From IMG/VR virus record IMGVR_UViG_2778261035_000005: a stretch of 64,000 nt of DNA; one strand, written 5' to 3'. Below, one piece after another: positions 3,260 through 22,700 of this stretch. The first letter of the stretch is position 1. Each line of letters starts with the position of its first letter. The translations under genes were made by a program, and so were the position numbers. Under the pieces are notes generated by a model. The model did no database searches and was not told the DNA's origin. It saw only the letters and a program-made list of their open reading frames with translations. Source of the DNA: a virus (Duplodnaviria > Heunggongvirae > Uroviricota > Caudoviricetes).

Positions 3260-4441
3260 ATGAGCCTTTATGTTATATCAACATTTAGGTTGGTAACAAT
3301 ATTGCCTGTTAAAAGTGGAATTATCGTGAGCGAGCTGAAAGAGTTAATTACCGAATTAGATTTTGAACAATGGTTGGACACTGAAGGTATCGTTTATCGA
3401 CGTGGAGGCGTGAGTACTCGCGGTCGTGAAGTGAATATCAAGGAGTGTCCGGTATGCGGCAGCTCCAACTGGAAGGTATATTTCAATCTGACCAGTGGCG
3501 TCGGTAAATGCTTCGCTGGTGATCATCCCGAAGAGATTCAGTTCAATAAGCTGGTCTTCCTCAAGCACTACAGCGGCAAATCACGACGACAGTTCGAGGA
3601 ATATGTGCAGAACGCCCTTCTTTCCCAGGGGTGGGCACCAAAGAAAGAAGAGCTAGTGCTTGCAAGCACAGTCGAGTTAGAGGGGCCAGTTGCACTCCCT
3701 CGTCATTACGAACTTCCTATAGATGGCCGTCTTCCAGACTATCTGGTTGAACGAAATATATCGCCTGAAATGGCAAAGTATTTTGACCTACGATACTGCG
3801 TCGAAGGTAAGCACGCCTATGTAGATCCGTATACAGATCAGGTTAAAGGACAGATATTCGATATGCGAATACTGATACCGGTTTACGATCTGGATGGGGT
3901 AATGAAGACATTTCAGGGACGAGACATTACCGGTACAGCAGAACGCCGCTACCTCTTTCCTATGCAGCTTCCAGCTTCAGGTAAGTTTCTCTACAACGGC
4001 TATAATGCAGTCGGCAAACAGACTGTAGTTGTCTGTGAGGGGGCGTTCGATGTTATGGGGGTTAAACGAGCTATTTTTGACGAAGAAACATTACGTGATT
4101 ACGTGGAACCAATAGGAACGTTCGGGATGCATCTATCTGGTAACACCACTCAGGATGCAGAAGATCAGTTAGGCGCGTTCCTGACGCTCAAGGCGCGTGG
4201 GTTACGTAATGTGATCATGATGTGGGATAGTGAAAAGCAAGCTATACGAAACACTATGGCCGCAGCCAGGCGACTGACCAGTATCGGTCTTAATGTGAAA
4301 ATTGCATGTTTGGGCGAGGAAGGACTCGACCCCGGCGATGCGACCCCGGGGCAGATTATCAAAGCCTACTATTGCGCAAAACCTTACTCACGACAGCTTG
4401 AACTTTTAAGCAAGGTAAAAGGCATAGCAGCATTAGTTTGA
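3260..4441 (+). CDS. DNA primase (zinc-ribbon + TOPRIM)
   Basis: CPVCGSSNW...GKCFAGDH zinc motif; VVVCEGAFDVMGV and MWDSEKQ TOPRIM-like; start moved to ATG 3260 after conserved gaaaaacac context. Confidence 0.7.
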   Translation: MSLYVISTFRLVTILPVKSGIIVSELKELITELDFEQWLDTEGIVYRRGGVSTRGREVNIKECPVCGSSNWKVYFNLTSGVGKCFAGDHPEEIQFNKLVFLKHYSGKSRRQFEEYVQNALLSQGWAPKKEELVLASTVELEGPVALPRHYELPIDGRLPDYLVERNISPEMAKYFDLRYCVEGKHAYVDPYTDQVKGQIFDMRILIPVYDLDGVMKTFQGRDITGTAERRYLFPMQLPASGKFLYNGYNAVGKQTVVVCEGAFDVMGVKRAIFDEETLRDYVEPIGTFGMHLSGNTTQDAEDQLGAFLTLKARGLRNVIMMWDSEKQAIRNTMAAARRLTSIGLNVKIACLGEEGLDPGDATPGQIIKAYYCAKPYSRQLELLSKVKGIAALV

Positions 4442-5578
4442 ACCAGTATTAGTCACGTACACATTGACCGAAAATGATTTAACTTCTGTGTTGAAGTTGT
4501 CAGTCATTACCGCGAGGTAGGCATTCTTGGTATCTCTGAATTGCTTCAGTATGATTTGAACGTTATCGGTGCAAACAAACGAGGTAGCCAGATTGCCTCC
4601 TTTCTCTGAAAAATCCTTCAGGAAGGTGCAGTCAACTTTGCCATCATTAGCGGTGAAGGTAGCATCATCACCCTGCCAGGTAAATGTAGCGTTAACGCCC
4701 TTATCAATGGATTTAGCAATAAGTCGCTGGGTGGCGGATTTTGTTTTGGCTTTGGAAGCCGGCGCTCGATATTTGCCGCTTTCTTTCAGTTCTGCAATGT
4801 AATCACAGCCATTTTTATCTTCTTTATCACAAGCAGCCTGATAAAGCTCAGCTGCTTTTTTATAGTCTTTTTTAACCCCTTCACCATACTCATACATAAT
4901 GCCAAGATTTGTCATGGCATCGGCGTTTCCGAGTTCAGCAGCTTTTTTATACCACTTAATTGCTTCGGCATCGTTGCGTTTAACACCTAAACCGTCATCG
5001 TATAAGGTGCCTAATGCGAACATGCCATCTGAACTACCTTGATCCGCCGCTTTTTTGTAATAAGTAAAAGCTTTTTTATAACTCTTTTGTACACCTTTAC
5101 CATATTGGTAATACGCACCAAGAAGGTAGCTAGCTTTAACATACCCGGCATCAGAGGCTAGATTGAAGTATTTAATGGCGAGCGCATGATCTACTTTACC
5201 AAGCATCCCCTTTTGATAAATAGCACCAAGATTGTTATAGGCTCTACCTTCACGAGCATCTCCCGCAAGTTTGTAGTACTCAACTGCTTTATTTAAGTCT
5301 TTATCTACACCCTCGCCAAATGTGTACATAACCCCAAGTGCATAATATGCTACTTTGTCTCCCTTTTCTGCAGCGAGATCAATCCACTTCTTGGCCTCAA
5401 CTACATCCTTATCAAAACCATTGATACCATCAAAATAATTTGTCCCTAACTCACTTTGTGCTGCGGTATCCCCTGCGGTAGCGGCTTCTATCAGCGTTTG
5501 TTTATTGTCTGCGTTAACGAATCCAGAGCTAAAAAGCAAAGTTAATGCCAGCAACGATGAAGATTTTATGTATTTCAT
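4433..5578 (-). CDS. secreted Sel1-like repeat (TPR-like) protein
   Basis: signal peptide MKYIKSSSLLALTLLFSSGFVNA; repeated A..W/Y..AA..G...A...LG..Y..G.GV..D units; only minus-strand gene in its neighbourhood. Confidence 0.7.
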   Translation of the reverse strand: MKYIKSSSLLALTLLFSSGFVNADNKQTLIEAATAGDTAAQSELGTNYFDGINGFDKDVVEAKKWIDLAAEKGDKVAYYALGVMYTFGEGVDKDLNKAVEYYKLAGDAREGRAYNNLGAIYQKGMLGKVDHALAIKYFNLASDAGYVKASYLLGAYYQYGKGVQKSYKKAFTYYKKAADQGSSDGMFALGTLYDDGLGVKRNDAEAIKWYKKAAELGNADAMTNLGIMYEYGEGVKKDYKKAAELYQAACDKEDKNGCDYIAELKESGKYRAPASKAKTKSATQRLIAKSIDKGVNATFTWQGDDATFTANDGKVDCTFLKDFSEKGGNLATSFVCTDNVQIILKQFRDTKNAYLAVMTDNFNTEVKSFSVNVYVTNTGSN

Positions 5579-5811
5579 ATTTTTTGTTCTGTTGATATAG
5601 GATGAACAGTTTAGACGCGGCAAGTGTCAAGTGTGCGAAAAATGGTACTTAAATTTAGTTAATATGTCAGCTTTGTTGATTTAGTTTATGGTCGGTAAAG
5701 TTACTAGGAAACTAATAACCATAAGAAATAGTACGTCATTTAATTATTGTGGCACTGCTCGTGTTTTGATTAACTAATACCTGCGATAAATATAAATAAA
5801 GGGAAGCCAAC

Positions 5812-6225
5812 ATGAGCAAAAATAAGCTGATTTTAACAGGAGCTTTATTGTCTTTGTTTGCTTTAGTGGGGTGTAAGCCTACAGACGAGAAGGCTATTGC
5901 TCTGGGCCAACAAGCAATTGCGGATGATATGAAAGATCCCACGTCGGTGATGTTTAGGAAAGATAAGTTTGTCAGGACTGATCATGACGATGGGAGTGTG
6001 ACAGGCTTTGTGTGCGGAGAATTGAACGCCAAAAATGGCTTTGGTGCATACGTGGGCTATCACTCATATGTTGTTGAACTCGAAATGAAGCCAAAGGGCA
6101 TGTTTTCGAAAGGGGTGGTATACAAAATCCTATCGAAGTCGTTGGCACCTAATGATCCTCATGACTTACAGCGTTATAAGCAGGTCTACAGAAAGATGTG
6201 CAACAGTGAGGCTGTAGCTCATTAA
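5812..6225 (+). CDS. lipoprotein of unknown function
   Basis: signal peptide with lipobox LFALVGC; SD agggaag upstream. Confidence 0.6.
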   Translation: MSKNKLILTGALLSLFALVGCKPTDEKAIALGQQAIADDMKDPTSVMFRKDKFVRTDHDDGSVTGFVCGELNAKNGFGAYVGYHSYVVELEMKPKGMFSKGVVYKILSKSLAPNDPHDLQRYKQVYRKMCNSEAVAH

Positions 6226-6350
6226 TGGTGAATGCCGGGCAGACTATAAGCCCGGCATCTTCGTATAGGGAACTATTGCGCCTAAAATGATAAGTAGATA
6301 CATACTTAGTTTTTTGTAAGAATACTTTCATCTGTTAGCTAGGAGTTGGT

Positions 6351-7127
6351 ATGAAAGACGAAATTCAGAAATTGGCCTGTGACATCATTGATAAAACAGG
6401 TTTAGAAATCAGCGAGGGCAGTCGACTAGACATCATTGGAAAGGCCGTCAATACAGCAATGAATCATATCGCTGCTCGTATGGACGAGATCCCGCTACCA
6501 GGGTTGCCTTATCTGAAAGTTGAGTTACACGTATGGGGCGAACCTTCTTGTGCACGGCGTTCTGCATTAGTTGTTTTTATTAGCAAAGAAAACCCGCTCA
6601 GTCTTAAAGTGCAGGTTGGAGCATGGCTTGATGGCAGAGTGATCTACACAAATACCGTTTTTTGTCTTTCAAACGACGAAACTATTGAAGCGGCCATTCA
6701 AGAAGCAGTTCTAGCAATGCGCAGCAGCGGTTTGATGAAGAATAACTACGAAGAGTACTTGCGTTCGATAAGTGGTGAAAAGACATTATCTCTGAAAGCA
6801 GATTTCGTTACCCCGAAAAATCTGTTGGAAGTTTTGATTAATAAAGGGGCTAATAGTGCCGTAAATGTAATCAGAGAGAGTGAATACGCGTCTCTTTGGG
6901 ATATGTGCAAAAGCCAGTTGGATCTTGTGCATATCGTTGTTGATGCGGGGAAGGCTTGTGATGGCGTAATGGCGGAATTTGCTGGGAAGATGGTCAGGAT
7001 TGCTAACGAATTACCGATGATTAAGCAAGAGGCTAAATCATACGCCACCAATCATGTCACAGAGCTTCTTGCCCCTTATCGCTTAGAAAGCGATCAGCGC
7101 AAGATGATTAGCTGGGGAAGTTGGTAA
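6351..7127 (+). CDS. hypothetical protein
   Basis: ORF track; aggag SD before ATG. Confidence 0.5.
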   Translation: MKDEIQKLACDIIDKTGLEISEGSRLDIIGKAVNTAMNHIAARMDEIPLPGLPYLKVELHVWGEPSCARRSALVVFISKENPLSLKVQVGAWLDGRVIYTNTVFCLSNDETIEAAIQEAVLAMRSSGLMKNNYEEYLRSISGEKTLSLKADFVTPKNLLEVLINKGANSAVNVIRESEYASLWDMCKSQLDLVHIVVDAGKACDGVMAEFAGKMVRIANELPMIKQEAKSYATNHVTELLAPYRLESDQRKMISWGSW

Positions 7128-7194
7128 GCTCTCTGTGTGTCGTTTTTTACGCAAACAATGATAGGTAAGCACAAGATTATTTCTGGCGGTAATT

Positions 7195-7665
7195 GTGAAA
7201 GCTGATTTATCAAAAATCCCTTCTATTTCAGGAAATAACGGTTATTCACTTCGTTGTGAGGAAGTAAAGATAAACGGTGAGTCGGCATATTGCAGCTATT
7301 CCGTTTGCCAGCACACCATTCTTGCCTTCAAAGAAAACCGTCTTCCTCGAACTTCTTTCCAGTCGTGCGCAACCGCTATTAAAGCAGGCAAATGCAAGGC
7401 GTTAAAAATGATGGTTGAAGAGATTCGTAAAGGAGAATCTCTGTATTTCGAAGATATGACCGCACTCATTAAGGAGGTTGAAGAACGGAATAAACAAGCC
7501 AGAACTATAAAACGAAAACGTGACAGTGTAACGATTAATAGCATGGTTAAGAAGAGCGCCACATCACAAACAGCGATCACTGACGTGTATGCGGCGTTGC
7601 TTGAAGAAACAACAAAAGAAACACATGAGCAAATCGATCAACATATGGAGGCAAAACAACAATGA
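7195..7665 (+). CDS. hypothetical protein
   Basis: ORF track (GTG start); end overlaps ligase start. Confidence 0.4.
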   Translation: MKADLSKIPSISGNNGYSLRCEEVKINGESAYCSYSVCQHTILAFKENRLPRTSFQSCATAIKAGKCKALKMMVEEIRKGESLYFEDMTALIKEVEERNKQARTIKRKRDSVTINSMVKKSATSQTAITDVYAALLEETTKETHEQIDQHMEAKQQ

Positions 7666-8984
7666 AAAAGTTGATCGCACTTAAGCATAAGCTGGACGAA
7701 ATGAAAGCTATGGGAACCAATGCAAAAAAAGAGGCATTGGCCAACATGGATGACTTCGAGCAAAGCATGGTTTCATTGATGCTCAACCCTTTCATCCGTT
7801 TTGGGGTAAAGAAATACAAAGTGGTAGAGCCGCTTAGTGAGTCCGTCCCAAGTGACGAAAAAGCCATTGATATACTGAATAAGCTGGCCTCTCGCGAGCT
7901 GACGGGGAACGCAGCAATAGCTGCTGTTGAGTCTATCGTGGCGTCAATGTGCGCCGATGGGCAGGACGTCTTCCGTCGTTTCCTCTTAAAAGATCCGAAA
8001 GCTGGCGTTGGGATTAGCCTATGCAACAAGGTTTTTGAAAATCCCATTCCGAAATTCGAGGTGCAGCTGGCGTCACCGTATAAAGAAAAAGGCGACAAAT
8101 ACCCCTTCAAGCCAAACCCTAAAGCAAAATGGCCGATGATTGGCAGCCTTAAGCTCGATGGTTTGCGAGTAATTTGCGAGGTTATTGTTGACGAGGAAGA
8201 GGTTAACTTCCTTTCTCGTACTGGTAATCCAATCACGTCTCTCGATCACTTAAAGCCAGCCATGCTCGAATTAGGCAAACTTTCAGGCCACAAACACATC
8301 TTCTTCGATGGTGAAGGAACAGCCGGTTCATTTAACCAGTCCGTATCTGCATTGCGCAAAAAGAACGTGCAGGCAATTGGCGCTATTTATCATGTTTTCG
8401 ACTTCTTCCTACCGGAATGGCGAGCACAGGCTAAATCCAAAGAGTATGCAAAGACAGGTATGAAGCTGAAAGAGCGCCTGGCTATGCTGGTGGCGTTGTT
8501 CAAAAACGATCGCAGTGAAGGCTACACACAAGACATTCACCTGCATCCGTTCTACATCATCCATAGCCACGAAGACTTCATCGAACGCTTCATGAAACGC
8601 CTGGACGATAACGAAGAAGGGGAGATGGGCAAAGATCCGAACTCTGTTTACGAGTTTAAACGTACCCGCAGCTGGTGGAAGTTAAAAGACGAAGACTCAG
8701 AAGATGGTGAAATTATCGACTTTGAGCCGGGCGACCCGGACTCTGGTTTTGCCAACACGCTTGGAAAAATTGTTATTCGCCTTGAAAACGGTGTGATTGT
8801 TCGTGCGAGCGGCATTAAGCATAAATATCTGGACGAGATCTGGAACAACAAAGAGAAGTACCGTGGTCGTATTGTCGAGGTTCATTGTCACGAGAAAACG
8901 CCGGATGGCAGCTTACGCCACCCACGACTGAAATGGCCGCGTTGCTTACGCGATACAGAAGATCGAATCGGAGATAAAGAATGA
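7662..8984 (+). CDS. ATP-dependent DNA ligase
   Basis: nucleotidyltransferase motif I KLDGLR (SLKLDGLRVICEV); replication-gene context. Confidence 0.7.
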   Translation: MKKLIALKHKLDEMKAMGTNAKKEALANMDDFEQSMVSLMLNPFIRFGVKKYKVVEPLSESVPSDEKAIDILNKLASRELTGNAAIAAVESIVASMCADGQDVFRRFLLKDPKAGVGISLCNKVFENPIPKFEVQLASPYKEKGDKYPFKPNPKAKWPMIGSLKLDGLRVICEVIVDEEEVNFLSRTGNPITSLDHLKPAMLELGKLSGHKHIFFDGEGTAGSFNQSVSALRKKNVQAIGAIYHVFDFFLPEWRAQAKSKEYAKTGMKLKERLAMLVALFKNDRSEGYTQDIHLHPFYIIHSHEDFIERFMKRLDDNEEGEMGKDPNSVYEFKRTRSWWKLKDEDSEDGEIIDFEPGDPDSGFANTLGKIVIRLENGVIVRASGIKHKYLDEIWNNKEKYRGRIVEVHCHEKTPDGSLRHPRLKWPRCLRDTEDRIGDKE

Positions 8985-9160
8985 TGCTCGGCTGGATGAT
9001 TGCATTTTTAGCAGTTGGTTTTTTCATCGGTATTGTGGTGATGTCCAGTTGCATTAATGACTACATTAAAAACGGTGTTATAGAAAGACGCGGTCGCATT
9101 TATCGCATTGTAGAAATAACCAACACCGTGAAGGAGATTAAGGATGATCGTATTAAGTAA
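8981..9160 (+). CDS. small membrane protein (59 aa, not in ORF track)
   Basis: ATG overlaps ligase stop (ATGA); hydrophobic MIAFLAVGFFIGIVVM; paralogous to ORF at 9356. Confidence 0.4.
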   Translation: MMLGWMIAFLAVGFFIGIVVMSSCINDYIKNGVIERRGRIYRIVEITNTVKEIKDDRIK

Positions 9161-9359
9161 ACGGGAGAAGGAAACACTTTATGAAATCAGTAAGTGGCCG
9201 GAGTTCCCTGAGTACTGGAAGCCTAAAACGCGGGCTAAGTTAGAGCGGTTAGGGTTGGTTGCAAACGTTTCTGAAACGAGGGGGTCGGCCAACTACCAGT
9301 TAACTGATAAAGGGAAAGTATTGCTACAGCAATTAGTAGAATCAGGAGCGTTAAAATGA
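9144..9359 (+). CDS. hypothetical protein
   Basis: ORF track; aaggag SD 9 nt upstream. Confidence 0.45.
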   Translation: MIVLSKREKETLYEISKWPEFPEYWKPKTRAKLERLGLVANVSETRGSANYQLTDKGKVLLQQLVESGALK

Positions 9360-9508
9360 TTCCATACATCTCATTAGCTTTTATGGGTGGCTTTCTTATC
9401 GGCTTCGGCATCTGTCGTGATTTAATTAAGCAGGAACTTAAAACCAAAACACTGTGCATCGGAAAGCGTGTGTATCGGGTAGTTCATGAAACAAAGGTTA
9501 GAAAATGA
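9356..9508 (+). CDS. small membrane protein (50 aa, not in ORF track)
   Basis: ATGA overlap with upstream stop; MIPYISLAFMGGFLIGFGIC; start codon lies inside repeated AATGATTCCATAC element. Confidence 0.4.
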   Translation: MIPYISLAFMGGFLIGFGICRDLIKQELKTKTLCIGKRVYRVVHETKVRK

Positions 9509-9795
9509 GCAATTTAACTTCTTGGGACTGGTGGTTGGCCACCTATTTCTTAGCGGCCGGAGTCGCATTCGCCTTTTACGTAGGTCAGTTAGTCGTAAAA
9601 CTGTTGCTGATTAAATTTGCTAGTCATAAACGTATCGATGATGGTCTGTGGCGTCTTGGCACCCTGGTGGAAACTCGCTACGGGCAACTTAAGGAGAACG
9701 AAACCATTACTATCCAAGCGAAACGATTCACTGCCACCATCACAAGAACACCTAGTCGTAGAGTGGCCTTGATCAAAAAAGTCGCAACCGAATAA
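9505..9795 (+). CDS. hypothetical membrane protein
   Basis: ORF track; ATGA overlap with upstream ORF; hydrophobic N-terminus. Confidence 0.45.
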   Translation: MSNLTSWDWWLATYFLAAGVAFAFYVGQLVVKLLLIKFASHKRIDDGLWRLGTLVETRYGQLKENETITIQAKRFTATITRTPSRRVALIKKVATE

Positions 9796-10009
9796 AAACA
9801 CAATGATAAGTATTTACTTACTTATCTTTTATGTATAAGATGACTTTGTTTTCGTTGAGACGCGACTGTTTGAACTTAAATACAAGTGCAAACGAAGAAG
9901 TCTATCTGGCAGTAGCCTAATAAGCCAAACACCAGCGAGGTCAGTTTCCAGCCTCGTTACCGAAATGGGACACACTGAGCGAGTGTGATTGCAGAACGCA
10001 GGAGGGAAC

Positions 10010-10147
10010 ATGAATGTTCCCTCCGATGAAGTAACAGAATGGGCGGTCAGTATATTTTCAACTCATATACGACTCCCGGATTCTTATCCAATGACCGCCC
10101 ATCCTGTTACGTCATTTTGTTCAATTATGTCGTTTATACTGGGTTAA
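10010..10147 (+). CDS. possible small ORF (45 aa) with SD and start codon inside a perfect palindrome
   Basis: aggaggg SD then ATG at 10010; palindrome ggagggaacat-ga-atgttccctcc 10001-10024; may be RNA structure instead. Confidence 0.2.
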   Translation: MNVPSDEVTEWAVSIFSTHIRLPDSYPMTAHPVTSFCSIMSFILG

Positions 10148-10574
10148 AAAGCGGCGACGTAGCCCGGCTGGTATGGTTAGCCAGCACACAACGTTGAGGC
10201 CATTACATTTTTATCAATTCTAAGGTTCTATTCACAGAGATACCGGCGAGCGTTGATATGTAACATGTTGGGCAAACATTCAATCGGAGTAGTGGCCTCA
10301 ACGTTGTGAAGACAGGATAGTTGTGTAGGTTTAACCACTGTTGCCATTGGTGCCTGTTTTCACAACAAATGATTCCATACATCACATTGTATAAATTACA
10401 AAGTAAGTGCAGTCCTCAGAAACATCATCTACTTAAAGATTTTGCCTTCTACTATTGAGCGAAGTCGAAAGCGTCTGGCACTAACGAAAAGTGCAAGTAG
10501 CGGTGCGTTTCCTGGCAGAAACTAAACCGTCGCGATTGGCACTGTTGAGTAATAAATACTGGCAGTGCCGAATT

Positions 10575-10649
10575 GATGGTGTAGCTCAGCGGTAGAGCAG
10601 TTGGCTGTTAACCAACTGGTCGGTGGTTCGAATCCACCCACCATCGCCA
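10575..10649 (+). tRNA. tRNA-Asn (anticodon GTT)
   Basis: cloverleaf by hand: acceptor GATGGTG/CACCATC, D-stem GCTC/GAGC, anticodon loop CTGTTAA, T-loop TTCGAAT, CCA end; differs from host-type tRNA-Asn. Confidence 0.85.
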
Positions 10650-10651
10650 AT

Positions 10652-10727
10652 GCCGGTTTAGCTCAGTTGGTAGAGCACCTGCCTTGTAAGCAGGATGTCA
10701 GCGGTTCGAATCCGTTAACCGGCACCA
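10652..10727 (+). tRNA. tRNA-Thr (anticodon TGT)
   Basis: acceptor GCCGGTT/AACCGGC, anticodon stem CCTGC/GCAGG, loop CTTGTAA, T-loop TTCGAAT, CCA. Confidence 0.85.
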
Positions 10728-10940
10728 ACACAACAGGAAAGAGCATTGAGAACCGCCGAGACTGCCCTGTTTGAAGCGTAAGTCCGTGCAAACGTCATAC
10801 AGTGCTCTTTTCGTTGTGGTGAATGCGGCTAAGCGCACGCGGGGAAATGGTTATATTGATCCTTTGTGATGACTATTGGCTCCGTCCACGGTGGATAACC
10901 AGCCAAAGGACACCGGGAAGCACCCGGCACCACAACAATT

Positions 10941-11027
10941 GGAGAGTAGGGAGCATGGTGCTCAAGCGGTCTTGAAAACCGTCCCATTGCGCAAGCGATG
11001 ATGGTTCGATTCCATTACTCTCCGCCA
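10941..11027 (+). tRNA. tRNA-Ser (anticodon TGA), class II with long variable arm
   Basis: acceptor GGAGAGT/ACTCTCC, anticodon loop CTTGAAA, long variable arm, T-loop TTCGATT, CCA. Confidence 0.75.
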
Positions 11028-11182
11028 GACACAGCGTTGAGCGGTTTGGCCTTTTAATCACCCAGATTAAGACTCCGCTAACATAAACCAGACCGCTCAA
11101 CGCTGTGATAGACAATTACGGCAGACGTTCTTAACCATAGCTTGCTAACATCCTAGCAACACTTTTTTTCAGCGCAAAATTC

Positions 11183-11206
11183 AAAGGGGCTTCGGCCCCT
11201 TTTTGG
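11183..11206. terminator. bidirectional intrinsic terminator
   Basis: aaaggggc-ttcg-gcccc-tttttgg hairpin flanked by A-run and T-run; between tRNA cluster and convergent minus-strand gene. Confidence 0.7.
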
Positions 11207-11211
11207 CTGGG

Positions 11212-12492
11212 TTAATTAAAACCGAATGAATCAAGTTCTGCTTTTAATTTATCGACCATTTTTTCAACTTCAACCACAATTTCGCCAATCACCTTTTCTT
11301 TGTGTTGATTAGAGCTAAGTTCAAAATAGGCGTTATATAACGCATAACGAGACAGAAAATTTCTAATCTCATTAGCGGGTCTAATGGTGTAGCCATCGGT
11401 TAACACGATATCGGTCTGTCTAGAGTGCTTCTCGTTGAGTTTTATTAGCCGCTTTATCTGTTTTTCATCCTTGAGCACTATCACTTTGTTAGCTGCAATT
11501 TCAAGCTCCCAGCCGACAAAATAACGCAGCGTAGAATTTAATTTAGCCACTTCCTCGGCTGCAATTTCCATTTTCAGCTCAATGTAGTTTCGCATATGCA
11601 TAGGTAGGTCATTAAATCTTTGCAGCAAATGTTGTCGGCAGGGGTTGTTGTAAGACCAAAGAACTGCAAACGTAAGCCTATGATAACAGCTTATCGCATT
11701 GGTATTACAGGCCGAATCACCAACAATCATGCGATCAACATAAAACTCTACGTCTTTTTGGTATTCTTTATTGAATATATCAGCGGCATAGGTGTCCAGG
11801 TAATGAACTTTAGATATTGCATCTTCAAAGAAAAGTTCATTTTCGAAGAAGTTGTATTTGTTCAGGAGACGATAAAGTTTCTTTGCGTCGTAGGTTTTGC
11901 TATTGTCGACATTAAGACCAAAAATAGCAATCAGCAGACTTACTTTTGGACTAATGCTGTTGCGCAGTTGTTCTATGTAAGATCTCTTTTCACTATCCGC
12001 AGATGACGGCAGATAGAAGTCTTTATCTACATAATTTAGAATTAAAATAATGTGGTTAACATACTTAATATAAACAGGGTTTTTTGTTGCATAGTAATAA
12101 ACGCCCTTGACGACTTTTATATTCAATTTCAAATTGTACTGACTATCATCCAGTAAGGTTTTGTTAACATCCTCAAGTAATTTATTATGCTGTTCAAGTA
12201 ATATGCCGTACCATTCCTTAAAAGAAGATTTTTTCATTTCAAGAAGCGAAGCCGCCGTCAGCCTGGTCGCTCTCATTGCCGCCTTTGCACTATGCCTTGC
12301 CTCATAAGCGGCCCATGCTGTGGCTAAAAAGGCAAGTGAAGTAGCAAGCGTACCTATAACCTCTACGTTTTCCTTGACGGTATCCCAGAAAATAATCATC
12401 ACTGTCCCAAGTATGAGGATTAACAAAACAGGCATTTTATCAGTGTCTTTGGTTAATTTTGAAACTGAATGATACCTAATCGACCATACCAT
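11212..12492 (-). CDS. hypothetical membrane-anchored protein, A+T-rich (candidate exclusion/defence cargo)
   Basis: ORF track; two N-terminal hydrophobic helices then ~350 aa soluble domain; strongly A+T-rich versus neighbours; alternative ATG at 12435. Confidence 0.55.
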   Translation of the reverse strand: MVWSIRYHSVSKLTKDTDKMPVLLILILGTVMIIFWDTVKENVEVIGTLATSLAFLATAWAAYEARHSAKAAMRATRLTAASLLEMKKSSFKEWYGILLEQHNKLLEDVNKTLLDDSQYNLKLNIKVVKGVYYYATKNPVYIKYVNHIILILNYVDKDFYLPSSADSEKRSYIEQLRNSISPKVSLLIAIFGLNVDNSKTYDAKKLYRLLNKYNFFENELFFEDAISKVHYLDTYAADIFNKEYQKDVEFYVDRMIVGDSACNTNAISCYHRLTFAVLWSYNNPCRQHLLQRFNDLPMHMRNYIELKMEIAAEEVAKLNSTLRYFVGWELEIAANKVIVLKDEKQIKRLIKLNEKHSRQTDIVLTDGYTIRPANEIRNFLSRYALYNAYFELSSNQHKEKVIGEIVVEVEKMVDKLKAELDSFGFN

Positions 12493-12641
12493 TTCAGCTA
12501 GTTTAAAGCTGTCTTGCCGGTTCTAGTGTGTCAACCTCACAAAGCCATTTCTGCTTAGTAACCAAACACATTAAATAGGTAATGACTCACCTATTCATTT
12601 TAGCTATAGTCACGACACTTACTCACTTGAAAGGACTCTAT

Positions 12642-12767
12642 ATGGGAAACAAACGTAAACAGGCGCGTCGCGCAGCTCGTCAGGCAGTGAAGTCAAAGCC
12701 ACGCATCCACGGCTACGAAATTGACACAATCATCGTTAATGAACAGCAGTTGCACGAGGTGAAGTGA
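12642..12767 (+). CDS. small basic protein (41 aa)
   Basis: aagga SD 6 nt before ATG 12642; MGNKRKQARRAARQAVKSKPR; stop overlaps next start. Confidence 0.4.
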   Translation: MGNKRKQARRAARQAVKSKPRIHGYEIDTIIVNEQQLHEVK

Positions 12768-13012
12768 TGAAAGTCGTTATCTACGGACGAGATAACTGCT
12801 CATACTGCAAACGTGCGGTCGAGCTGGCGAAGCAACTAAAGGGACATGGCTACGGTGATTATGAGTACATAAACATCACCACTGCCGGTATCGATAAGGA
12901 AAAACTTAGCGAAATTGTTGGTAAACCGGTAGAGACTATCCCCCAGGTGCTGATCGATGGCCAGCCGATTGGCGGATACACAGAGATGGCATCTTTCGTA
13001 AGTTTCTTATAA
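12767..13012 (+). CDS. glutaredoxin / NrdH-like redoxin
   Basis: VVIYGRDNCSYCKRA CxxC motif, small thioredoxin-fold length. Confidence 0.75.
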   Translation: MKVVIYGRDNCSYCKRAVELAKQLKGHGYGDYEYINITTAGIDKEKLSEIVGKPVETIPQVLIDGQPIGGYTEMASFVSFL

Positions 13013-13050
13013 GTAAAAGCCACATCTTTGTACATATAGTACATATAACA

Positions 13051-13075
13051 AAAAAGGCCCATATGGGCCTTTTTC
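13051..13075. terminator. bidirectional intrinsic terminator
   Basis: aaaaaggcccatatgggcctttttc perfect hairpin with flanking A and T runs. Confidence 0.75.
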
Positions 13076-13196
13076 ATAACTTCTAGCTAACCACTACAGT
13101 GGCTTAAAGACCACTTCACCCTTGCGTTCAGCTTCAGCTTTAGCAGTCATGAATCGTTTGATCATTTCGACTTTGCTAGCATGGATAGTTTTAAAA

Positions 13197-13751
13197 TCAA
13201 TCTTCCCTTTGTTTTGGGTAGTGTTGTGTTCGTATCGCATAGGAAGCTCCGTCATTTAAATAAGTTAGGCCACGCTCTTGTGTAAATCTCTTCACATATC
13301 TCTTGTATGTGGCCATCAGTTCTTCGCGTTCTGCCGCAAAGAATAAAATCTGTATGCCTTCATTGTCGGCAACTTTGAGCATTAAGTCAACTAAAGTACC
13401 GTAAAGGTATTGAAGTTCACCTAAAGTAAGATTAAAAGACCCTTCGGGTTTGGCAAATACGTTAATTGGCTCTTCCGCTCCAAGAGCGACATTCTGGAGC
13501 TGTTCTTGCTGCCTGTCAAGTTGAATCATGTCCACAAAACTAACGACAGATACACACAACCCATAAACATCAGCACCTAACATATTATGCATAGTTTCTG
13601 CGGCAACAGGATCTAAAGAAGGAGGGCAAAAGACTAAACGGTATCTAGCCTTACGAGCTTCATTGCCAGAGAAAACAAAGTCTATATCTAAATATGACAG
13701 ATCACCCGGCAATGAAGCCAAACCAGGTGTAACCAACTTATGCAAGTGCAT
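13197..13751 (-). CDS. hypothetical protein
   Basis: ORF track; agaggga SD upstream of ATG on minus strand; divergent from recombinase gene. Confidence 0.5.
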   Translation of the reverse strand: MHLHKLVTPGLASLPGDLSYLDIDFVFSGNEARKARYRLVFCPPSLDPVAAETMHNMLGADVYGLCVSVVSFVDMIQLDRQQEQLQNVALGAEEPINVFAKPEGSFNLTLGELQYLYGTLVDLMLKVADNEGIQILFFAAEREELMATYKRYVKRFTQERGLTYLNDGASYAIRTQHYPKQRED

Positions 13752-13887
13752 CTGTCTCGAATCCCTCTTTATTAGTATAAGTTGTCTTATTGTACCCTAC
13801 CAAACGTTTATATGCATTGTTATGTATTATTTTGATTTTCAATATTACCTCCTAGAACGAAGGGTAGATTTCAAAAAACGCACCCTC

Positions 13888-13920
13888 AATGATTCCATAC
13901 CTACTATGTATGGAATCATT
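13888..13920. other. lox/dif-like recombination core site candidate (13-bp inverted arms, 7-bp spacer)
   Basis: AATGATTCCATAC-CTACTAT-GTATGGAATCATT perfect inverted repeat 98 bp upstream of recombinase ATG. Confidence 0.5.
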
Positions 13921-14018
13921 ACTGAAAATGAGTTACTTTTACTCTTGATCCTATAAGAATCTATGCCTAATATACTGTTTACTTATACAGTGCATCGGCG
14001 TAACTCGGTGATTGTCAT

Positions 14019-15122
14019 ATGAAAAATAGCTTTGACAGAGCACGCGCTGCGGAGAACACCTCAAAAGAGGCGATTGAGTATCTCGAAAGAGCATCTCAAA
14101 TGCAGGCCGTTATGATCTCCCAGGTCAGCAATGACATGAGATTCTCGGACGCATTCATGTTATTCACTCGCTTATCTCTGCTGATAACAAGACGTCGGCC
14201 AGAGATCGCTGTTCATTGTATTTTGATACATGTTTTGCCGCACATTGCCGATGTAAAAGTAAGTGATATTAATAGGTTCATGGTGAACCAACTGGTCAAC
14301 CCACTAATACTGGATGGCAAAATTGTTATGGGTCGCCGCGTTTTCTCTCTGATGAAGCAGTTCCTCAGCTGGTGCGCCTTCCAGGGGATGATCGACGTGT
14401 CACCGTTAAACGATATGTCACTTAACAAAGTTGCCGGTGGCGCAAAGCCCACACCTCGCGAGCGGAAGCTAACCGACGCAGAGGTATGGGTGTTCTGGAA
14501 TATATGGGACTACTTCAATGTGTGTGCTGGTACAAAATGGGCGGCCAGGCTATGTCTTGTATCCGCAAGACGACCTGACGAAGTACTGCGGGCTAAAAAA
14601 AGTGAGTTCAACCTCCAGCGTGGGGTTTGGAATCAAGGCAAGAGAAACAAATCAGCCCGTGAGCATTCTCTGCCTTTAAGCACATTAATGCGCACATGCA
14701 TTGAAGAGTTATTCGAATATGGTAAAGGCAGCCAGTGGCTTGTGCCTTCGAATAAAAAAATCGGGAAAGATCTTCCGATGTCTAAAGTGGCAATAGCCCA
14801 GGCATTACGCCGTATCCTGGAACGACCAGAACTGATGGAGCTTGAGCCATTTACACCACGAGATTTGCGTCGTACTGCGCGTAGTTACTTCCCAGCATTA
14901 GGCATAAGCCAGGAGGTATCACGTAAAATCATGAACCACAGTCTTGAGGGGATAGATCGGGTCTACGACCGGCACGATTATATGGACGAGATGCGAGACG
15001 CCTTAGAAAGTTTCTCGACGTACATCGCATCAATCGTAGAGCAACCGGATTTAGACGAAATTGACCACAAATTCAAGGGAGATCGTCTATCGACAGAGCT
15101 TATTCGTGTAAATTTTTCATAG
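14019..15122 (+). CDS. tyrosine site-specific recombinase (integrase/resolvase family)
   Basis: C-terminal catalytic region PRDLRRTARSYF...HSLEGIDRVYDRHD (R, HxxR, Tyr); N-terminal ~120 aa lacks an obvious arm-binding domain. Confidence 0.75.
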   Translation: MKNSFDRARAAENTSKEAIEYLERASQMQAVMISQVSNDMRFSDAFMLFTRLSLLITRRRPEIAVHCILIHVLPHIADVKVSDINRFMVNQLVNPLILDGKIVMGRRVFSLMKQFLSWCAFQGMIDVSPLNDMSLNKVAGGAKPTPRERKLTDAEVWVFWNIWDYFNVCAGTKWAARLCLVSARRPDEVLRAKKSEFNLQRGVWNQGKRNKSAREHSLPLSTLMRTCIEELFEYGKGSQWLVPSNKKIGKDLPMSKVAIAQALRRILERPELMELEPFTPRDLRRTARSYFPALGISQEVSRKIMNHSLEGIDRVYDRHDYMDEMRDALESFSTYIASIVEQPDLDEIDHKFKGDRLSTELIRVNFS

Positions 15123-15503
15123 AGACTTTATGGCCTCAACAACCTTTTGTGATGCGCCTTTCTCTTTACCGAATCGCTCGTTATATGCAGCAAGAACCTG
15201 TTTTTCGTCCTCGTTAAGAGGAGCAGTGCCTTCTTTGTATAAAAATGCTGCGAGTTCGGGTTGGCGTTCTTCCAGCACCATCATCATAAGACGACTTGGC
15301 TCAATACCCAGTGCCAGCGCCAGCGGACGAACCTTATCGATAGGCAAAGGAATTTTGCCGCTTTTAATTAAAGAAAGGTTGTTGGCGTTTTTATACCCAA
15401 TTGTTTTGGCTATCTGGGCCTGGCTCATAGGTGAGGATTCAATCAACCCTGCGATAAAAGCAGCGTAGCGACTTTCTATAAATTCAATCTTGTTGTCAGA
15501 CAT
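15117..15503 (-). CDS. XRE-family HTH transcriptional regulator (repressor-like)
   Basis: HTH-like MSQAQIAKTIGYKNANNLSLIKSGK; divergent from small ORF; palindromic motif in its upstream region. Confidence 0.6.
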   Translation of the reverse strand: MSDNKIEFIESRYAAFIAGLIESSPMSQAQIAKTIGYKNANNLSLIKSGKIPLPIDKVRPLALALGIEPSRLMMMVLEERQPELAAFLYKEGTAPLNEDEKQVLAAYNERFGKEKGASQKVVEAIKSL

Positions 15504-15534
15504 TGTTACAACCTTTGCGCGTTCAATTCTCTCT

Positions 15535-15548
15535 GGTAAGTGCTTACC
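15535..15548. promoter_or_regulatory. palindromic operator-like site GGTAAG-TG-CTTACC in regulator promoter region
   Basis: perfect inverted repeat; member of motif family recurring in >=15 intergenic regions. Confidence 0.4.
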
Positions 15549-15754
15549 GATATTACATCAAAGGTTAGGGTTGTAAAGCTATTATCATTTTTTTCGGCAG
15601 GCACTTTAAAGACCGGACAAAGACCAATGCATGGTGAAAAACTAGCCCCAAATAGGTAAGAAAATTAACTTGCATCTAATATGGATGTATTCAGTATTGA
15701 TATAAATTTTAGTAGTATTCCTTACAATAGTATAAGTAAGAATGGATTGATTGA

Positions 15755-15967
15755 ATGAACACCACTATTTCCAGCCTAATAGCTCTTGAGATCGGACACG
15801 TACAAAAATTAGCTGATGAGTGTGTAGCTGACATCCTCACCGAGCTACCGAATGAGCAGATTGAGGTTGGTGTGAATGACACAACTGGCTTTATATTCGA
15901 ACTTAACAACAAACGCTTCACGCTTATCAATACCGGCTCCGGGTCTTTAGCCGTCAGAACCTGTTAA
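15755..15967 (+). CDS. small hypothetical protein (Cro-like position)
   Basis: ORF track; divergent from XRE regulator. Confidence 0.4.
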   Translation: MNTTISSLIALEIGHVQKLADECVADILTELPNEQIEVGVNDTTGFIFELNNKRFTLINTGSGSLAVRTC

Positions 15968-16065
15968 TCCCTCTTCTACCTGCGCGAATGGCTTAGTTCC
16001 CTGTTCGCGCAGTGCTACATTAAACACACTAGTAAATAATTTGTTTTCATAACAAAGGATTAGCC

Positions 16066-19711: not shown

Positions 19712-22700
19712 CTTCTCTCTTGGGGAGTCGGCTCTAAAAGCAGAAAACGCGGTGAAGATTGCCAGAGAAGCTGGCTACACCGCTGTAATTTCGGCAGATA
19801 GCATGAATATTGCGAGTGTTATTCCACTACAACGTGCCGCTGGTGACGACATGGCGGTTATTTGTGGTGTGAAACTAAACATTGTTGATGATCCCACATA
19901 CGAGCACCGGGCTAAACTTGCTAAAGAGTCTATGGGATGTATGGAATCATTAGAGCGTGGGCGGAACTACTCCTTTACCGCTCTAATTAAAAATGAGCAG
20001 GGATATCGAGACATCTGCGAACTAATGACGGCGGCCAACACACGAGAACAGTTCTACTTTGTACCGCGTCTCTCGCTCGAACAGTTGGTTTCTACATATG
20101 CCAAAGGCAACATCATCCTGCTCACTGCCGACATCGGTAGCGTGTTCCAACGCAACGATTTTGCAAAAATCATAAGCTCACTGATTACAGCGGGTGGAAA
20201 AGACAACTTCTATAGTGTGGTTTATCCGCACCCTACCCCATTCTACGACCAGATTAACGTCCGGGCGATGAAAGTCGCCAGCGCACTGAAAATAGAGCCA
20301 GTAGCGTTCTATCCCGCTTATTACGAATCGATCGACGATGCAGACATTAAAGACATTGCGCACATGGTTACGAACAACATCAAAATCGACCAGCCGCATC
20401 GTCTGCGTATCCCCCACCAGCGAGATAACGCCGTCAATGGTCGCCGCCATCTCCTTGAGGCGCTGAAAGCCTTCTCCGTTCGCATGGATGTGCCGGTAAC
20501 AGCTGCAATGGCCTCAACAACGCAGGATACCATTATCGATGCCTGCACATGGCGCTGGCATGAATTGCCACCAGCACTGCCAAAGATGGCAGACGACGAG
20601 CCTGCAACGCTGATGAAACTGGCCGTTGCTGGGCTGCGTAAACGTCTTACCACAAAAGAGTTTGGCTACACACCACCGGCTTCTGAGAACAGGGTTTATG
20701 TTGAGCGACTTAAGTACGAAATGGACACGCTTACTCGCCTGGGATTTTGTGGTTACTTCCTGATGGTACGCGATCTGATGAATCACAGCCGTGAAACTGG
20801 CATTCCTGTCGGGCCTGGTCGTGGTTCCTCCGCTGGCTCTTTGGTGGCATGGTGCATAGGCATAACCAACGTCGACCCTATCCGTCACGGTCTTCTGTTT
20901 GAACGTTTCATCAACCCTGAGCGTCTCGACTTGCCAGATGCGGACTTGGACTTCAGCCAGGCACGTCGCCATGAGGTGATCGAGTATCTGAATGAACGCT
21001 ACGGCGAAGATTACGTTGCAGGCATTCCGAACTTCACCTACCTGGGCGCGGCCTCTGCACTACGTGACACCGCTCGTATTTATGGTGTGGAGTCCGCAGA
21101 TATGGCGGTATCAAAAGAACTGAAGAACGTCGAGGATGATAGCCTTCCATTGGAAGAGCTGCGCGAACAACTGGCAAGCCTCGACAAATACGCGACAAAA
21201 TATCCTGATGCATTCAATGCAGCCTGCAAGTTACAAAGCCTTATGCGTGGCTATGGTAGACATGCGGCAGGGATGATCGTAGCAGGTGTTCCTCTGACAG
21301 AACGAACACCGGTTGAACGACGTGGTGACGCGCGTTGTATCGCATTTGACAAGCGTTACTGCGAGGCTATGGGCCTAATTAAGCTGGACGTACTTGGCCT
21401 GGCGACTCTCGATTTGCTCGATAGTGCAAAACGCTACATTAAAGAGAACACAGGTGAGGATATCAATCTTGATGCCATTTCTCTTGAAGATCGCAAGGTG
21501 CTGGATGGTTTTGCTGCTGGGTACACTCAAGGTGTTTTCCAGCTTGAATCAGGCCCAATGCGCAAGCTGCTTAAAGATTTAGGTGGTGGAATTGAGCCAA
21601 TGAGCTTTAAAACGGTCGTTGCTACGACTGCGCTCTTCCGGCCGGGGCCAATTCAGTCAGGCATGTTGGATGATTATGTTTCTGTCGCCAAAGGCTTTAT
21701 GACGCCGGAATCATTACACCCCGTTCTTGATGAACTTACCGCAGAAACAAATGGCGTGATTCTTTATCAGGAACAGACGATGAACGCGACTCGATTGCTT
21801 GCGGGCTTCACAATGGCTGAAGCTGACGGCGTTCGTAAAGCGATCGGCAAAAAAGACATGGAGAAAATGAAGAGCATGGGTGAGAAGTTCATCGTTCAGG
21901 CTCAAGCTGGCTGGATAGACGTTGAGCTGGAAGATGGCACTACACAGCGCATTCACCGTGCGGAACATTTTAAATGCGAAGACGGAACACTGAAAACTGT
22001 CGAAGAGGCGCTTGAACACGGCGCAAAACTACCTATAAACGCAGTACGCGTGACAGCGTCACACCCAGGGCTATCAGAGATGAAAGCGAAGGAGATCTGG
22101 ACCGCATTCGAAAAAAATGGTGCCTACCAGTTCAACAAATCACACTCTGTTGCTTACTCCTTGATCAGTTATCAATCTATGTGGTTGAAAACTCATTATC
22201 CCGCAGAGTTTTTCGCTGCTGCTCTCACTATTCTTGGCGAAGATAAACACCAGGGGCTGGTTAAAGATGCGCTGACCTATGGTATTCGCGTATTGCCACC
22301 AGACGTTAACGTGTCATCCAACCGAATCGAGATCCGCACGCTTGAAGATGGCAGCCAGGTGCTGTATGCGCCCTTCTCTGCTGTGAAGGGGTGTTCTGAG
22401 AATGGCTGCCAAGCCATCATGAGAGCGCGAGAAAAAGTTGGCGGCAAATTCGAGTCACTGGCGCAATTCGAAGAAGCTGTCGAGAAACGTGCCTGTAATA
22501 GTCGAGTGCGCGAATCGCTGCAAAAAGTAGGGGCGTTTGCATCCATCGAGCCAGGTAGTCTGCCAGCAACTGATCCAGAGCGCCTACGCGACCAGGCTGA
22601 ATTGATGGGAAACCTTGTCATAGACGCAGTTAAAGCCTCACGTCCGTTTGAGATGAACCCCAAACGTTCGGCTGAGATTAACGTGCTCATGACACGGATG

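Follow-up and report, generated by a model that had tools for sequence, protein, structure and literature searches.

A putative lox-like recombinase site, its solitary arm copies and a separate cargo slot in SSU5/pHCM2-type phage-plasmids

Exact copies of the 13-mer AATGATTCCATAC surround a tyrosine recombinase gene (int) in a phage-derived stretch of 64,000 nucleotides (the window, meaning the whole stretch analysed), and their arrangement raises the question of whether they are traces of repeated DNA insertion or elements that the backbone retains. The window is 100% identical to the E. coli plasmid NZ_AP022089.1, an SSU5/pHCM2-type phage-plasmid. An earlier note on this DNA had proposed that the adjacent recombinase inserted cassettes repeatedly in the 5' end of a gene, duplicating the gene start each time, as in an integron-like system or nested att sites. 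The genes on which that account drew (the 50-aa, 29-codon, 426-aa and 184-aa ORFs, the three tRNAs and glutaredoxin) were all found (Table 1).

We identified exact matches to the 13-mer at 9355-9367 (+), 10368-10380 (+), 13888-13900 (+), 13908-13920 (-) and 19939-19951 (-), five where 0.10 would be expected even with one mismatch allowed. These confirm the three direct copies starting at 9355, 10368 and 13888 that had been described before, and add a minus-strand copy inside dnaE that had been missed. Copies 1 and 2, said to match over about 21 bp, have 22 nt in common with one mismatch. When the whole 110,167-bp plasmid was scanned, the core 10-mer GATTCCATAC had no further occurrence, and the solitary copies were confined to 10.6 kb around int.

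Table 1. Features of the recombinase locus and its surroundings, in window coordinates
Feature	Position	Strand	Remarks
71-aa ORF	9144-9359		stop codon inside copy 1
Solitary copy 1 (AATGATTCCATACATC)	9355-9370	+	13-mer match; conserved in relatives
50-aa membrane ORF	9356-9508		start overlaps copy 1
Conserved multi-hairpin non-coding region	9960-10330	+	segment A, just upstream of copy 2
Solitary copy 2	10368-10383	+	non-coding DNA, ~190 bp upstream of tRNA-Asn
tRNA-Asn, tRNA-Thr, tRNA-Ser cluster	10575-11027	+	
Terminator hairpin and T-run (GGGGCTTCGGCCCCTTTTT)	11183-11204		constant left border of cargo slot; read from sequence
Variable cargo slot	11206-13862		tRNA-operon terminator to conserved left flank of site
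426-aa ORF	11212-12492	-	weak AbiC-like match; in cargo slot
61-aa ORF			in cargo slot
Glutaredoxin	12764-13012		in cargo slot
Terminator	13050-13074		in cargo slot
184-aa moron	13197-13751	-	in cargo slot
Conserved left flank, pattern CAGAWTTYAAAAAA-N9	13862-13887	+	conservation at -25 to -1
Palindromic core site AATGATTCCATAC-CTACTAT-GTATGGAATCATT	13888-13920		13-7-13; 7-nt spacer CTACTAT
Predicted int promoter TTGATC-17-TAATAT	13945-13990	+	
LexA box TACTGTTTACTTATACAG	13973-13990		overlaps predicted int promoter
int, tyrosine recombinase, 367 aa	14019-15122	+	PF00589 and weak PF22022 match
Degenerate int-internal copy (GATTCCAAAC)	14625-14634	-	codons for VWNQ
HTH regulator, putative prophage repressor	15117-15503	-	converges on int, 6-bp overlap
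Solitary dnaE copy	19936-19951	-	codons C-M-E-S-L, hypervariable protein loop

The recombinase and its putative site

Two of the five matches form the arms of a palindromic core site that lies 98 bp upstream of the int start codon. In all homologues examined, down to 44-47% Int identity, int is preceded by a 13-7-13 palindrome at a distance of 45-110 bp. Enterobacterial phage-plasmids, with an Int 56-100% identical, have arms of the GATTCCATAC type; Pantoea megaplasmids and the phage-plasmids of Xenorhabdus and Providencia, with an Int 44-47% identical, have arms of the GACTCCAGAC type. The arm type switches along with the recombinase clade. The spacers comprise 15 lineage-specific sequences, three of them found in both orientations, which fits an exchange region and not a sequence-specific element. 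The HTH regulator encoded next to int was considered as the protein that binds the palindrome (CYRAN_45 has been called a putative repressor (PMC9928086)). However, this candidate was rejected: the Pantoea loci have the palindrome and int but lack a neighbouring HTH regulator, which pairs the site with int. The int-linked position and the arms that track the recombinase clade support the earlier suggestion: judged from its sequence context, the palindrome very likely serves the adjacent tyrosine recombinase as its crossover site.

Conservation at the site extends beyond the arms. Among 71 distinct left flanks it spans positions -25 to -1 with none farther out, and on the right side of the core it covers about 20 bp. 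The conserved 25-bp left flank suggests accessory factors, and the site may be less simple than loxP. One full site was found in the whole plasmid and one in every viral stretch of a set of 114. Of the 219 E. coli places, none was chromosomal, and a scan of the genome collection found no chromosomal palindrome, with all enterobacterial matches on contigs of 169 kb or less; attP-type chromosomal integration was rejected because chromosomal copies are missing. A comparison of identity to the left and right of the palindrome showed no lineage switch there, the local cargo alone being different. Literature searches on the SSU5, pHCM2 and pFra integrase returned nothing on this site, and a search for the motif returned primers.

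Residues R185, R284 and Y316 of Int are the same in all 33 homologues compared, and K211 and H307 in nearly all. The closest fold to its AlphaFold model (pLDDT 85) is that of lambda Int, with further matches to Tn1549 Int and Xer; the integron integrase IntI (PDB 2a3v) ranked below all three. The sole NCBIfam match was a weak one to a P4-like integrase domain, and P4-like integrases are the nearest outgroup. The PF13356 arm-binding domain is absent from Int, and the first 130 N-terminal residues are modelled as all-helical. A LexA box (TACTGT-N8-ACAG) overlaps the predicted -10 element and was found in 101 of 120 loci; int is apparently under SOS control. Such LexA control would not be expected of a housekeeping resolution system.

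We propose that the 33-bp palindrome and about 25 bp of left flank would serve as the crossover site of this apparently SOS-controlled recombinase in a simple lox-like module, whose most likely job would be multimer resolution and recombination between phage-plasmid copies. As in P1 Cre-loxP and Flp-FRT, a single recombinase gene lies beside its own inverted-repeat site; the arms here are 13 bp and the asymmetric spacer is 7 bp, where that of loxP is 8 bp. The locus also resembles Cre-loxP in having one site per replicon in an extrachromosomal prophage for which no chromosomal integration was found. Unlike Cre, Int is nearer by sequence and fold to lambda and P4-type integrases, and the conserved 25-bp flank and the LexA box in the int promoter are further differences. 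The extra single-arm copies lie kilobases away, whereas the third arm of FRT adjoins the core.

The cargo slot and the cassette proposal

The earlier note had the copies partition a cargo region. The DNA between the tRNA cluster and the palindrome is indeed hypervariable, with 40 different lengths in 48 loci (1.2 to 11.5 kb). However, segment A (9368-10367), which had been counted as cargo, is backbone that is present in all relatives examined and never absent. Homology to relatives stops at 11203-11213, by the tRNA-operon terminator near 11205 that forms the left cargo border, and in a minimal locus (L109) the same terminator element precedes a single cargo gene. Module borders are the terminator, grxA and the flank of the site; attC-like or other repeated structured sites were not found at module ends. 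The outer edge of the palindrome is the exact end point of several cargo replacements, and among the relatives compared neither copy 1 nor copy 2 coincides with a cargo junction.

Relatives carry AbiGi, YafO, HEPN/Toprim, type I restriction-modification, RelE/ParE or caf1 genes in this slot. Cargo genes lie in both orientations and have their own promoters and terminators. PADLOC recognised no known defence model among the cargo ORFs of the window. In a lysogen, expression of the 184-aa ORF homologue reaches 723x above background (PMC9928086). The slot of Yersinia pestis pFra holds the F1 capsule operon: the caf1 block replaces roughly the segment from copy 2 to the palindrome, with its right junction exactly at the arm edge and its left junction 42 bp from copy 2, which was removed. 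The ends of the deletions and replacements in SSU5 and pFra do not coincide with the repeats.

These observations bear on repeated cassette insertion. The int gene has its 5' end toward the site and the variable cargo on the far side, and a LexA box controls the recombinase; both features recall integrons, the second as a resemblance only, and the hypervariable cargo and the right junction of the pFra replacement also speak for insertion. However, Int is not of the IntI type, the modules lack attC sites and form no cassette array, the cargo is bidirectional, and the repeats do not bound the modules. Each genome has one full site, and the sequence after the arm in the solitary copies is not homologous to the palindrome spacer. 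The left pFra junction lies away from copy 2, and no junction was seen at a solitary copy. Aligning relatives revealed no absence of segment A with a junction at a repeat, and copies 1 and 2 stay in place in almost all relatives compared, an arrangement that the earlier note had named as part of what would refute its model. The further copy, inverted and inside dnaE, also speaks against it. The idea that each copy is an ORF start held for copy 1, a conserved gene start; the 29-codon ORF that begins at 10369 in copy 2 stops after 6 codons (MIPYIQ) in SSU5 and pHCM2 and is not conserved. Comparative data thus largely refute cassette insertion, which we regard as very improbable. The locus also resembles the pdif modules of Acinetobacter plasmids, where recombinase sites are tied to exchangeable cargo, but the cargo here does not lie between pairs of full sites. 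Cargo turnover takes place in a slot of its own, which has the tRNA-operon terminator as its left anchor and the recombinase site as its right one.

Conservation of the solitary copies

Copies 1 and 2 occupy homologous positions in every relative with the same arm type that was examined, except pFra, which lost copy 2, and two loci (L012/L013) without copy 1; copy 1 is kept in E. coli, Klebsiella, Cronobacter, pHCM2, pFra and SSU5. The same four solitary positions recur across lineages that are about 75% identical in DNA, the fourth lying inside int, where the copy that is degenerate in the window is intact (GATTCCATACAT) in the pHCM2, pFra and Klebsiella lineages. The non-consensus fraction is 0.039 in copy 1 against 0.22-0.24 in its flanks and 0.006 in the dnaE copy against 0.14-0.15. 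Third codon positions of dnaE are frozen inside the motif only, while the codons beside it change non-synonymously. Copy 2 is the longest invariant block in a 5-lineage alignment with otherwise unalignable flanks. About 230 solitary copies all had parental flank pairs, with no recombinant combinations. Shared positions, motif variability of 0.006-0.04 against 0.14-0.24 in flanks, and parental flanks indicate that the solitary copies are, at the level of sequence comparison, conserved and selected and not scars of cassette insertion.

The solitary copies consist of one recombinase arm followed by ATC, without a second arm. An invariant 14-16-mer is common to them, but their match to the palindrome arms covers only 13 nt, of which 11 are invariant; the positions after the arm read ATCNCAT, unlike the palindrome spacer. 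Polarity is perfect, with 85 plus-strand copies at the left and 94 minus-strand copies at the right, so that every solitary copy points toward the palindrome; because the four sites are homologous across genomes, this amounts to four independent sites and a chance of about 1/8. Phage-plasmids with the other arm type have no solitary copies. Since arms are invariant within the clade, co-variation of arms and solitary copies could be judged only as presence or absence against the other arm type. A 15-mer scan of viral contigs gave mostly chance matches, the useful loci being those with two copies about 1 kb apart. The 13-nt arm identity, the clustering within 10.6 kb, the polarity and the absence with other arms speak for a link of the solitary copies to Int.

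One relative, SSU5, lacks int and keeps the solitary copies, copy 2 having 2 substitutions in 16 nt. We rejected it as an int-less control: the deletion is unique and recent, and at 96-98% identity to pHCM2 its retention of the copies says little.

The copies might instead be single-arm sites of a shufflon, with Int flipping the 9.5-10.6 kb that separate a left copy from the dnaE copy and switching dnaE on or off. As in the sfx sites of the R64 shufflon (Rci), one arm is conserved, the start of the 7-bp spacer partly so and the second arm not; left copies are inverted relative to right ones, and copy 1 equals the dnaE copy over 20 nt in several E. coli relatives. However, no inverted isoform appeared among about 230 copies (consensus assemblies could miss rare events), in most lineages the copies disagree over the 7 bp that follow the arm, and inversion would destroy an essential replication gene. 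The sites are also kilobases apart, unlike those of R64, with one in that essential gene. We consider such switching highly unlikely.

Possible roles of the solitary copies and their significance

Our preferred explanation, which we hold to be probable, is that the palindrome is a lox-like site of Int, that the solitary copies are selected one-arm elements and that the cargo slot is separate from both. The copies at 9355, 10368 and 19936 (-), with the int-internal fourth in many relatives, are selected backbone DNA elements that would bind recombinase monomers through a single arm and would not recombine. They may act as regulatory or architectural sites at the start of the small membrane-protein gene, before the tRNA operon, within int and near the beginning of dnaE. 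The conserved ATC of the solitary copies never occurs in palindrome spacers and is not predicted by simple half-site recognition by Int. This extension fits RNA pairing or another reader equally well.

RNA-RNA pairing would have rightward left-side transcripts that contain AAUGAUUCCAUACAUC, namely the mRNA of the small ORF and either a structured non-coding RNA or a tRNA leader with copy 2, pair over 14-16 nt with the dnaE and int mRNAs, controlling replication and recombination genes. With respect to rightward transcription the left copies are all sense and the right copies all antisense, and the copies match each other over more nucleotides than they match the arms. Copy 2 lies just 3' of a structure supported by covariation (89 pairs, 12 with compensatory changes, by RNAalifold on 5 lineages; fold z-scores of -5.0 and -3.0; no Rfam family matched) and is unpaired in centroid folds, and the A-to-G change in SSU5 copy 2 would preserve a G-U pair. 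However, pairing leaves the 13-nt identity to the Int arm unexplained. The palindrome is upstream of the predicted int promoter and so probably not in the int mRNA, and neither a promoter nor a terminator was found around copy 2, where reading by eye and a promoter scan gave no convincing sigma-70 promoter. Variants at the motif edges mix wobble-compatible and incompatible changes, and a seeming co-variation of bases outside the 16-mer was not sustained once more genomes were included. On balance we consider pairing unlikely.

Another backbone protein could read the 14-16-mers, the likeness to the Int arm then being historical. This would account for the conserved ATC extension that palindromes lack. 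One candidate is the 71-aa product, which has a weak EarA-like winged-helix match and whose gene stops inside copy 1, but nothing ties this protein to the motif. The 13-nt identity to the arm is too long for coincidence, and the copies are missing from phage-plasmids with the other arm type; we judge a different binder quite improbable.

A bolder form of the one-arm reading, which we put forward tentatively and think rather doubtful, is that a polar array of single arms converging on the site gives the recombinase a second function, or else that the 16-mer is an sRNA-mRNA seed. Int may control a small regulon, blocking or tuning dnaE, int, the tRNA operon and the membrane-protein gene after SOS induction; the copies may be directional barriers, concentrating replication termination close to the resolution site; or the 16-mer may seed an sRNA-mRNA circuit that controls the phage DNA polymerase. 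The arrangement also recalls XerCD/dif with KOPS or Ter, in which oriented motifs flank and converge on a resolution site, although the polar motifs here are recombinase-arm copies and number only 3-4. The YopR (SPbeta) and SroF (phi3T) repressors have a tyrosine-recombinase fold and are a precedent for site-specific DNA-binding regulators in prophages. Both are weak fold matches of Int (ranks 33 and 39), but they have lost catalysis, whereas Int keeps all catalytic residues and a crossover-type site.

The phage-plasmid family is common and includes S. Typhi pHCM2 and Y. pestis pFra/pMT1; 218 of 5,426 complete E. coli genomes carry the locus. The slot beside the site houses defence, toxin-antitoxin and highly expressed moron genes, and the F1 capsule operon in the plague plasmid. 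Its true borders, and any part of the recombinase in exchange, matter for the movement of virulence and defence cargo between these elements. This natural 13-7-13 lox-like system, with its 15 spacer variants, might supply orthogonal recombination tools. The frozen recombinase-arm copies, one of them in a tolerant dnaE loop, are a testable feature, and any of the candidate second functions, if true, would be a mechanism undescribed for tyrosine recombinase systems.

The repeat and its surroundings

Bases 9000-16000 of the window show 100% identity to the E. coli plasmid NZ_AP022089.1 (110,167 bp) and ~98% identity to the phage-plasmid Cyrano (pLF82); kin of the locus include Salmonella phage SSU5, S. 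Typhi pHCM2 and Y. pestis pFra. A block of replication genes encloses the locus, with the gene order ligase, small ORFs, tRNAs, cargo, int (tyrosine recombinase), HTH regulator (putative repressor), cobT-like, AAA ATPase and dnaE.

An earlier note had described three direct repeats, and exact copies of AATGATTCCATAC are present on the plus strand at all three positions, the third forming the left arm of a palindrome whose right arm is the same sequence inverted. A minus-strand copy within dnaE had been overlooked. In all, 5 exact matches were found vs 0.10 expected. We reconstructed the whole plasmid and searched it for the 10-bp core GATTCCATAC, which did not occur anywhere else, so all copies are confined to 10.6 kb around int. 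The repeat observation is confirmed and extended. The copies outside the palindrome (solitary copies) share a longer motif, AATGATTCCATACATC, have no second arm, and in the window are followed by the 7 nt ATCNCAT, unlike the palindrome spacer (CTACTAT). The suggestion that the copies are gene starts held for copy 1, which lies at a conserved start, but not for copy 2, where SSU5 and pHCM2 have an ORF of just six codons. Close to copy 1, ORFs of 59 and 50 aa are apparent paralogues, each with a single hydrophobic helix and, after it, the sequence G-(R/K)-R-(I/V)-Y-R-(I/V)-V-(E/H).

Features of the repeat region and of the second LexA box in the window
Feature	Position	Strand
59-aa ORF	8981-9160	
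Copy 1	9355	+
50-aa ORF	9356-9508	
Segment A	9368-10367	
Multi-hairpin non-coding region	9960-10330	
First long hairpin	10187-10308	
Copy 2	10368	+
STnc100 family match	10795-10963	
Second long hairpin	11030-11107	
Cargo slot	11206-13862	
Homology to relatives at grxA (glutaredoxin)	12574-12990	
Palindrome (left arm at 13888, right arm at 13908)	13888-13920	
LexA box of int	13973-13990	
int	14019-15122	+
Degenerate copy within int	14625	-
Putative repressor gene	15117-15503	-
dnaE copy (AATGATTCCATAC at 19939-19951)	19936-19951	-
Second LexA box	61138-61157	
UmuD-like S24 peptidase gene	61174-61563	

The palindrome and its recombinase

Every homologue examined has a 13-7-13 palindrome 45-110 bp upstream of int, and each of 114 viral stretches contains exactly one. 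Its arms carry GATTCCATAC in enterobacterial phage-plasmids (Int 56-100% identical) and GACTCCAGAC in Pantoea megaplasmids and in Xenorhabdus and Providencia phage-plasmids (Int 44-47% identical). Because the Pantoea loci have the palindrome without a neighbouring HTH regulator, we assign the palindrome to int. There are 15 lineage-specific versions of the spacer, of which three were found in both orientations between similar flanks in related lineages (CTATTAA/TTAATAG in loci L178 and L162, CTATAGA/TCTATAG in L157 and L184, and TTATATA/TATATAA in L151 and L156). Such variable, two-orientation spacers would be expected of a crossover region that needs only to match its partner.

Int matches PF00589 and, weakly, PF22022, with full conservation of R185, R284 and Y316 and near-complete conservation of K211 and H307. 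Its N-terminal part consists of helices only and lacks a recognised arm-binding domain, and lambda Int is the nearest solved fold. Domain and family matches and fold comparison led us to reject Int as an integron integrase. All 219 places in 5,426 complete E. coli genomes were outside the chromosome, and in a palindrome scan of 185,579 species genomes all Enterobacterales matches fell on contigs ≤169 kb, consistent with phage-plasmids. The only other matches of the scan, three Amycolatopsis contigs (L020, L022 and L023), have the same 10-7-10 pattern within longer palindromes and unrelated flanks, and probably have no relation to this module.

The pairing of palindrome and int, the single site, the spacers, the features of Int and the lack of chromosomal copies point to a lox-like module, in which the palindrome is the predicted site of the adjacent recombinase and would support recombination between copies of the element, an activity that we infer from these comparisons. 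On either side of the palindrome is an A-tract on the same strand, AAAAAA near -15 to -10 and AAAA near +4 to +8 (within 13862-13887 and 13921-13940); these tracts are kept across the family, which suggests a bend or host-factor site.

A LexA box, TACTGTTTACTTATACAG, overlaps the predicted int -10 and is found in 101 of 120 related loci; the sole other LexA box in the window lies ahead of the UmuD-like S24 peptidase gene. As int and the putative repressor gene are convergent with a 6-bp overlap (15117-15122), SOS-induced transcription of int would run antisense into the latter.

Solitary copies of the arm

The earlier note had proposed that the copies arose by integron-like cassette insertion, each event duplicating a gene start. 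However, every copy is exact and in the same position in all close relatives, and the copies are likewise retained in lineages of ~75% DNA identity (Klebsiella pJN2-26, Cronobacter, pHCM2 and pFra, the last without copy 2). Segment A, taken there to be cargo, was never absent in the relatives examined, and holds conserved small ORFs and structured non-coding DNA. The flank pairs of ~230 solitary copies from all loci fetched were parental upstream and downstream only, indicating no deletions or inversions between copies in the assemblies. With fixed positions, a constant segment A, parental flanks, unlike spacers and an Int that is no integron integrase, the integron-like mechanism is not supported, and the genome comparisons argue that the solitary copies are not cassette scars.

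Sequence conservation points instead to selection on the solitary copies at the nucleotide level. The dnaE motif encodes C-M-E-S-L within a loop that is unrelated at this position in more distant relatives. The residues beside it vary freely (MG, MR, MV, NG, GG, KG, ER), yet the nucleotides TGTATGGAATCATT are the same in eight lineages, and third codon positions are variable everywhere but inside the motif. Across 32 distinct sequences the non-consensus fraction was 0.006 for motif positions and 0.14-0.15 for flanking ones; for copy 1 it was 0.039 vs 0.22-0.24. Copy 2 is the longest invariant block of a five-lineage alignment in which its flanks are otherwise unalignable.

The multi-hairpin region upstream of copy 2 is conserved, with 12 compensatory base pairs over five lineages and no Rfam match, and may be an undescribed structured RNA or origin-like element. 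Two long hairpins with a common stem foot, CACARCGTTGAG...CTCAACGYTGTG (4 matches vs 0.69 expected), bracket copy 2 and the tRNA cluster. The interval between tRNA-Thr and tRNA-Ser contains a match to the STnc100 sRNA family (44.1 bits, near but under the gathering score of 47).

We favor a role for Int, whose monomers would bind these one-arm sites, which could not recombine. A solitary copy equals the palindrome arm over 13 nt, 11 bases (TGATTCCATAC) are invariant in both, and the solitary copies cluster around int. In 120 loci oriented by int, 85/85 plus-strand copies are to the left of the palindrome and 94/94 minus-strand copies to its right, although these counts rest on four homologous positions, with a chance probability of ~1 in 8. 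The fourth position is inside int, on the minus strand over codons D-V-W-N-Q, and is degenerate in the window. Neither type of solitary copy was present within 10 kb in phage-plasmids and megaplasmids that carry the alternative arms.

The main rival explanation is RNA pairing between transcripts bearing the motif. Relative to rightward transcription, copies on the left are sense and those on the right antisense, the solitary copies share an extra ATC that is never found in the palindrome spacer, and copy 2, predicted to be unpaired, directly follows the structured region with its compensatory pairs. Pairing would leave the identity of motif and arm unaccounted for, and the predicted int promoter is downstream of the palindrome; binding by Int remains our preferred reading. 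SSU5 still has solitary copies without int, regulator or cargo (copy 2 with two substitutions in 16 nt), but this retention says little because SSU5 has a unique deletion and shares 96-98% identity with pHCM2. SSU5 is a deletion derivative of a pHCM2-like element (13588-13753 of the SSU5 locus, L010, vs 3446-10980 of the pHCM2 locus, L146), and no other plasmid in PLSDB has the junction. The loss of cargo, int and putative repressor would fit a lytic derivative.

The adjoining cargo slot

Among 48 loci, copy 2 and the palindrome were separated by 40 different distances, between 1,190 and 11,491 bp. The minimal locus consists of copy 2, tRNA-Asn, hairpin, terminator, a single ORF and the palindrome. 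In the window, homology to relatives ends on the left at 10651-10741 or 11203-11213 and returns at grxA, then at 13865-13870, 13884 or exactly 13888. A profile of 71 distinct left flanks was conserved from -25 to -1 and nowhere farther out. These breakpoints and the conserved flank delimit the slot, within which grxA serves as an anchor. Next to the E. coli spacer CTACTAT are eight families of left flank and a single family of right flank.

Among the cargo of relatives are AbiGi, YafO, HEPN/Toprim, a type I restriction system and RelE/ParE. In the window the slot carries an ORF with weak similarity to AbiC and a 184-aa ORF; in lysogens, the Cyrano homologue of the latter reaches an expression 723-fold above background (PMC9928086). 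Identity to relatives is alike on both sides of the slot, so local cargo alone was exchanged. Homologous crossovers in the anchors would suffice to explain this exchange, and Int may have a role at the right-hand end.

In pFra, the F1 capsule operon caf1R-caf1M-caf1A-caf1 (3126-8869 of locus L147) replaces 3106-8870 of the pHCM2 locus (L146). On the right, the replacement abuts the outer edge of the left arm exactly. Its left junction falls 42 bp to the left of copy 2, at the base of a conserved hairpin, with loss of copy 2 and the tRNA. This is the closest case to the cassette junctions at repeats that had been predicted, yet the left junction is off the repeat and no duplicated site remains.

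The recombination module would itself be of an ordinary kind. What is unusual is the set of apparently selected single-arm copies that accompanies it. Module and copies adjoin an important cargo slot, the one that holds the F1 capsule operon in pFra.
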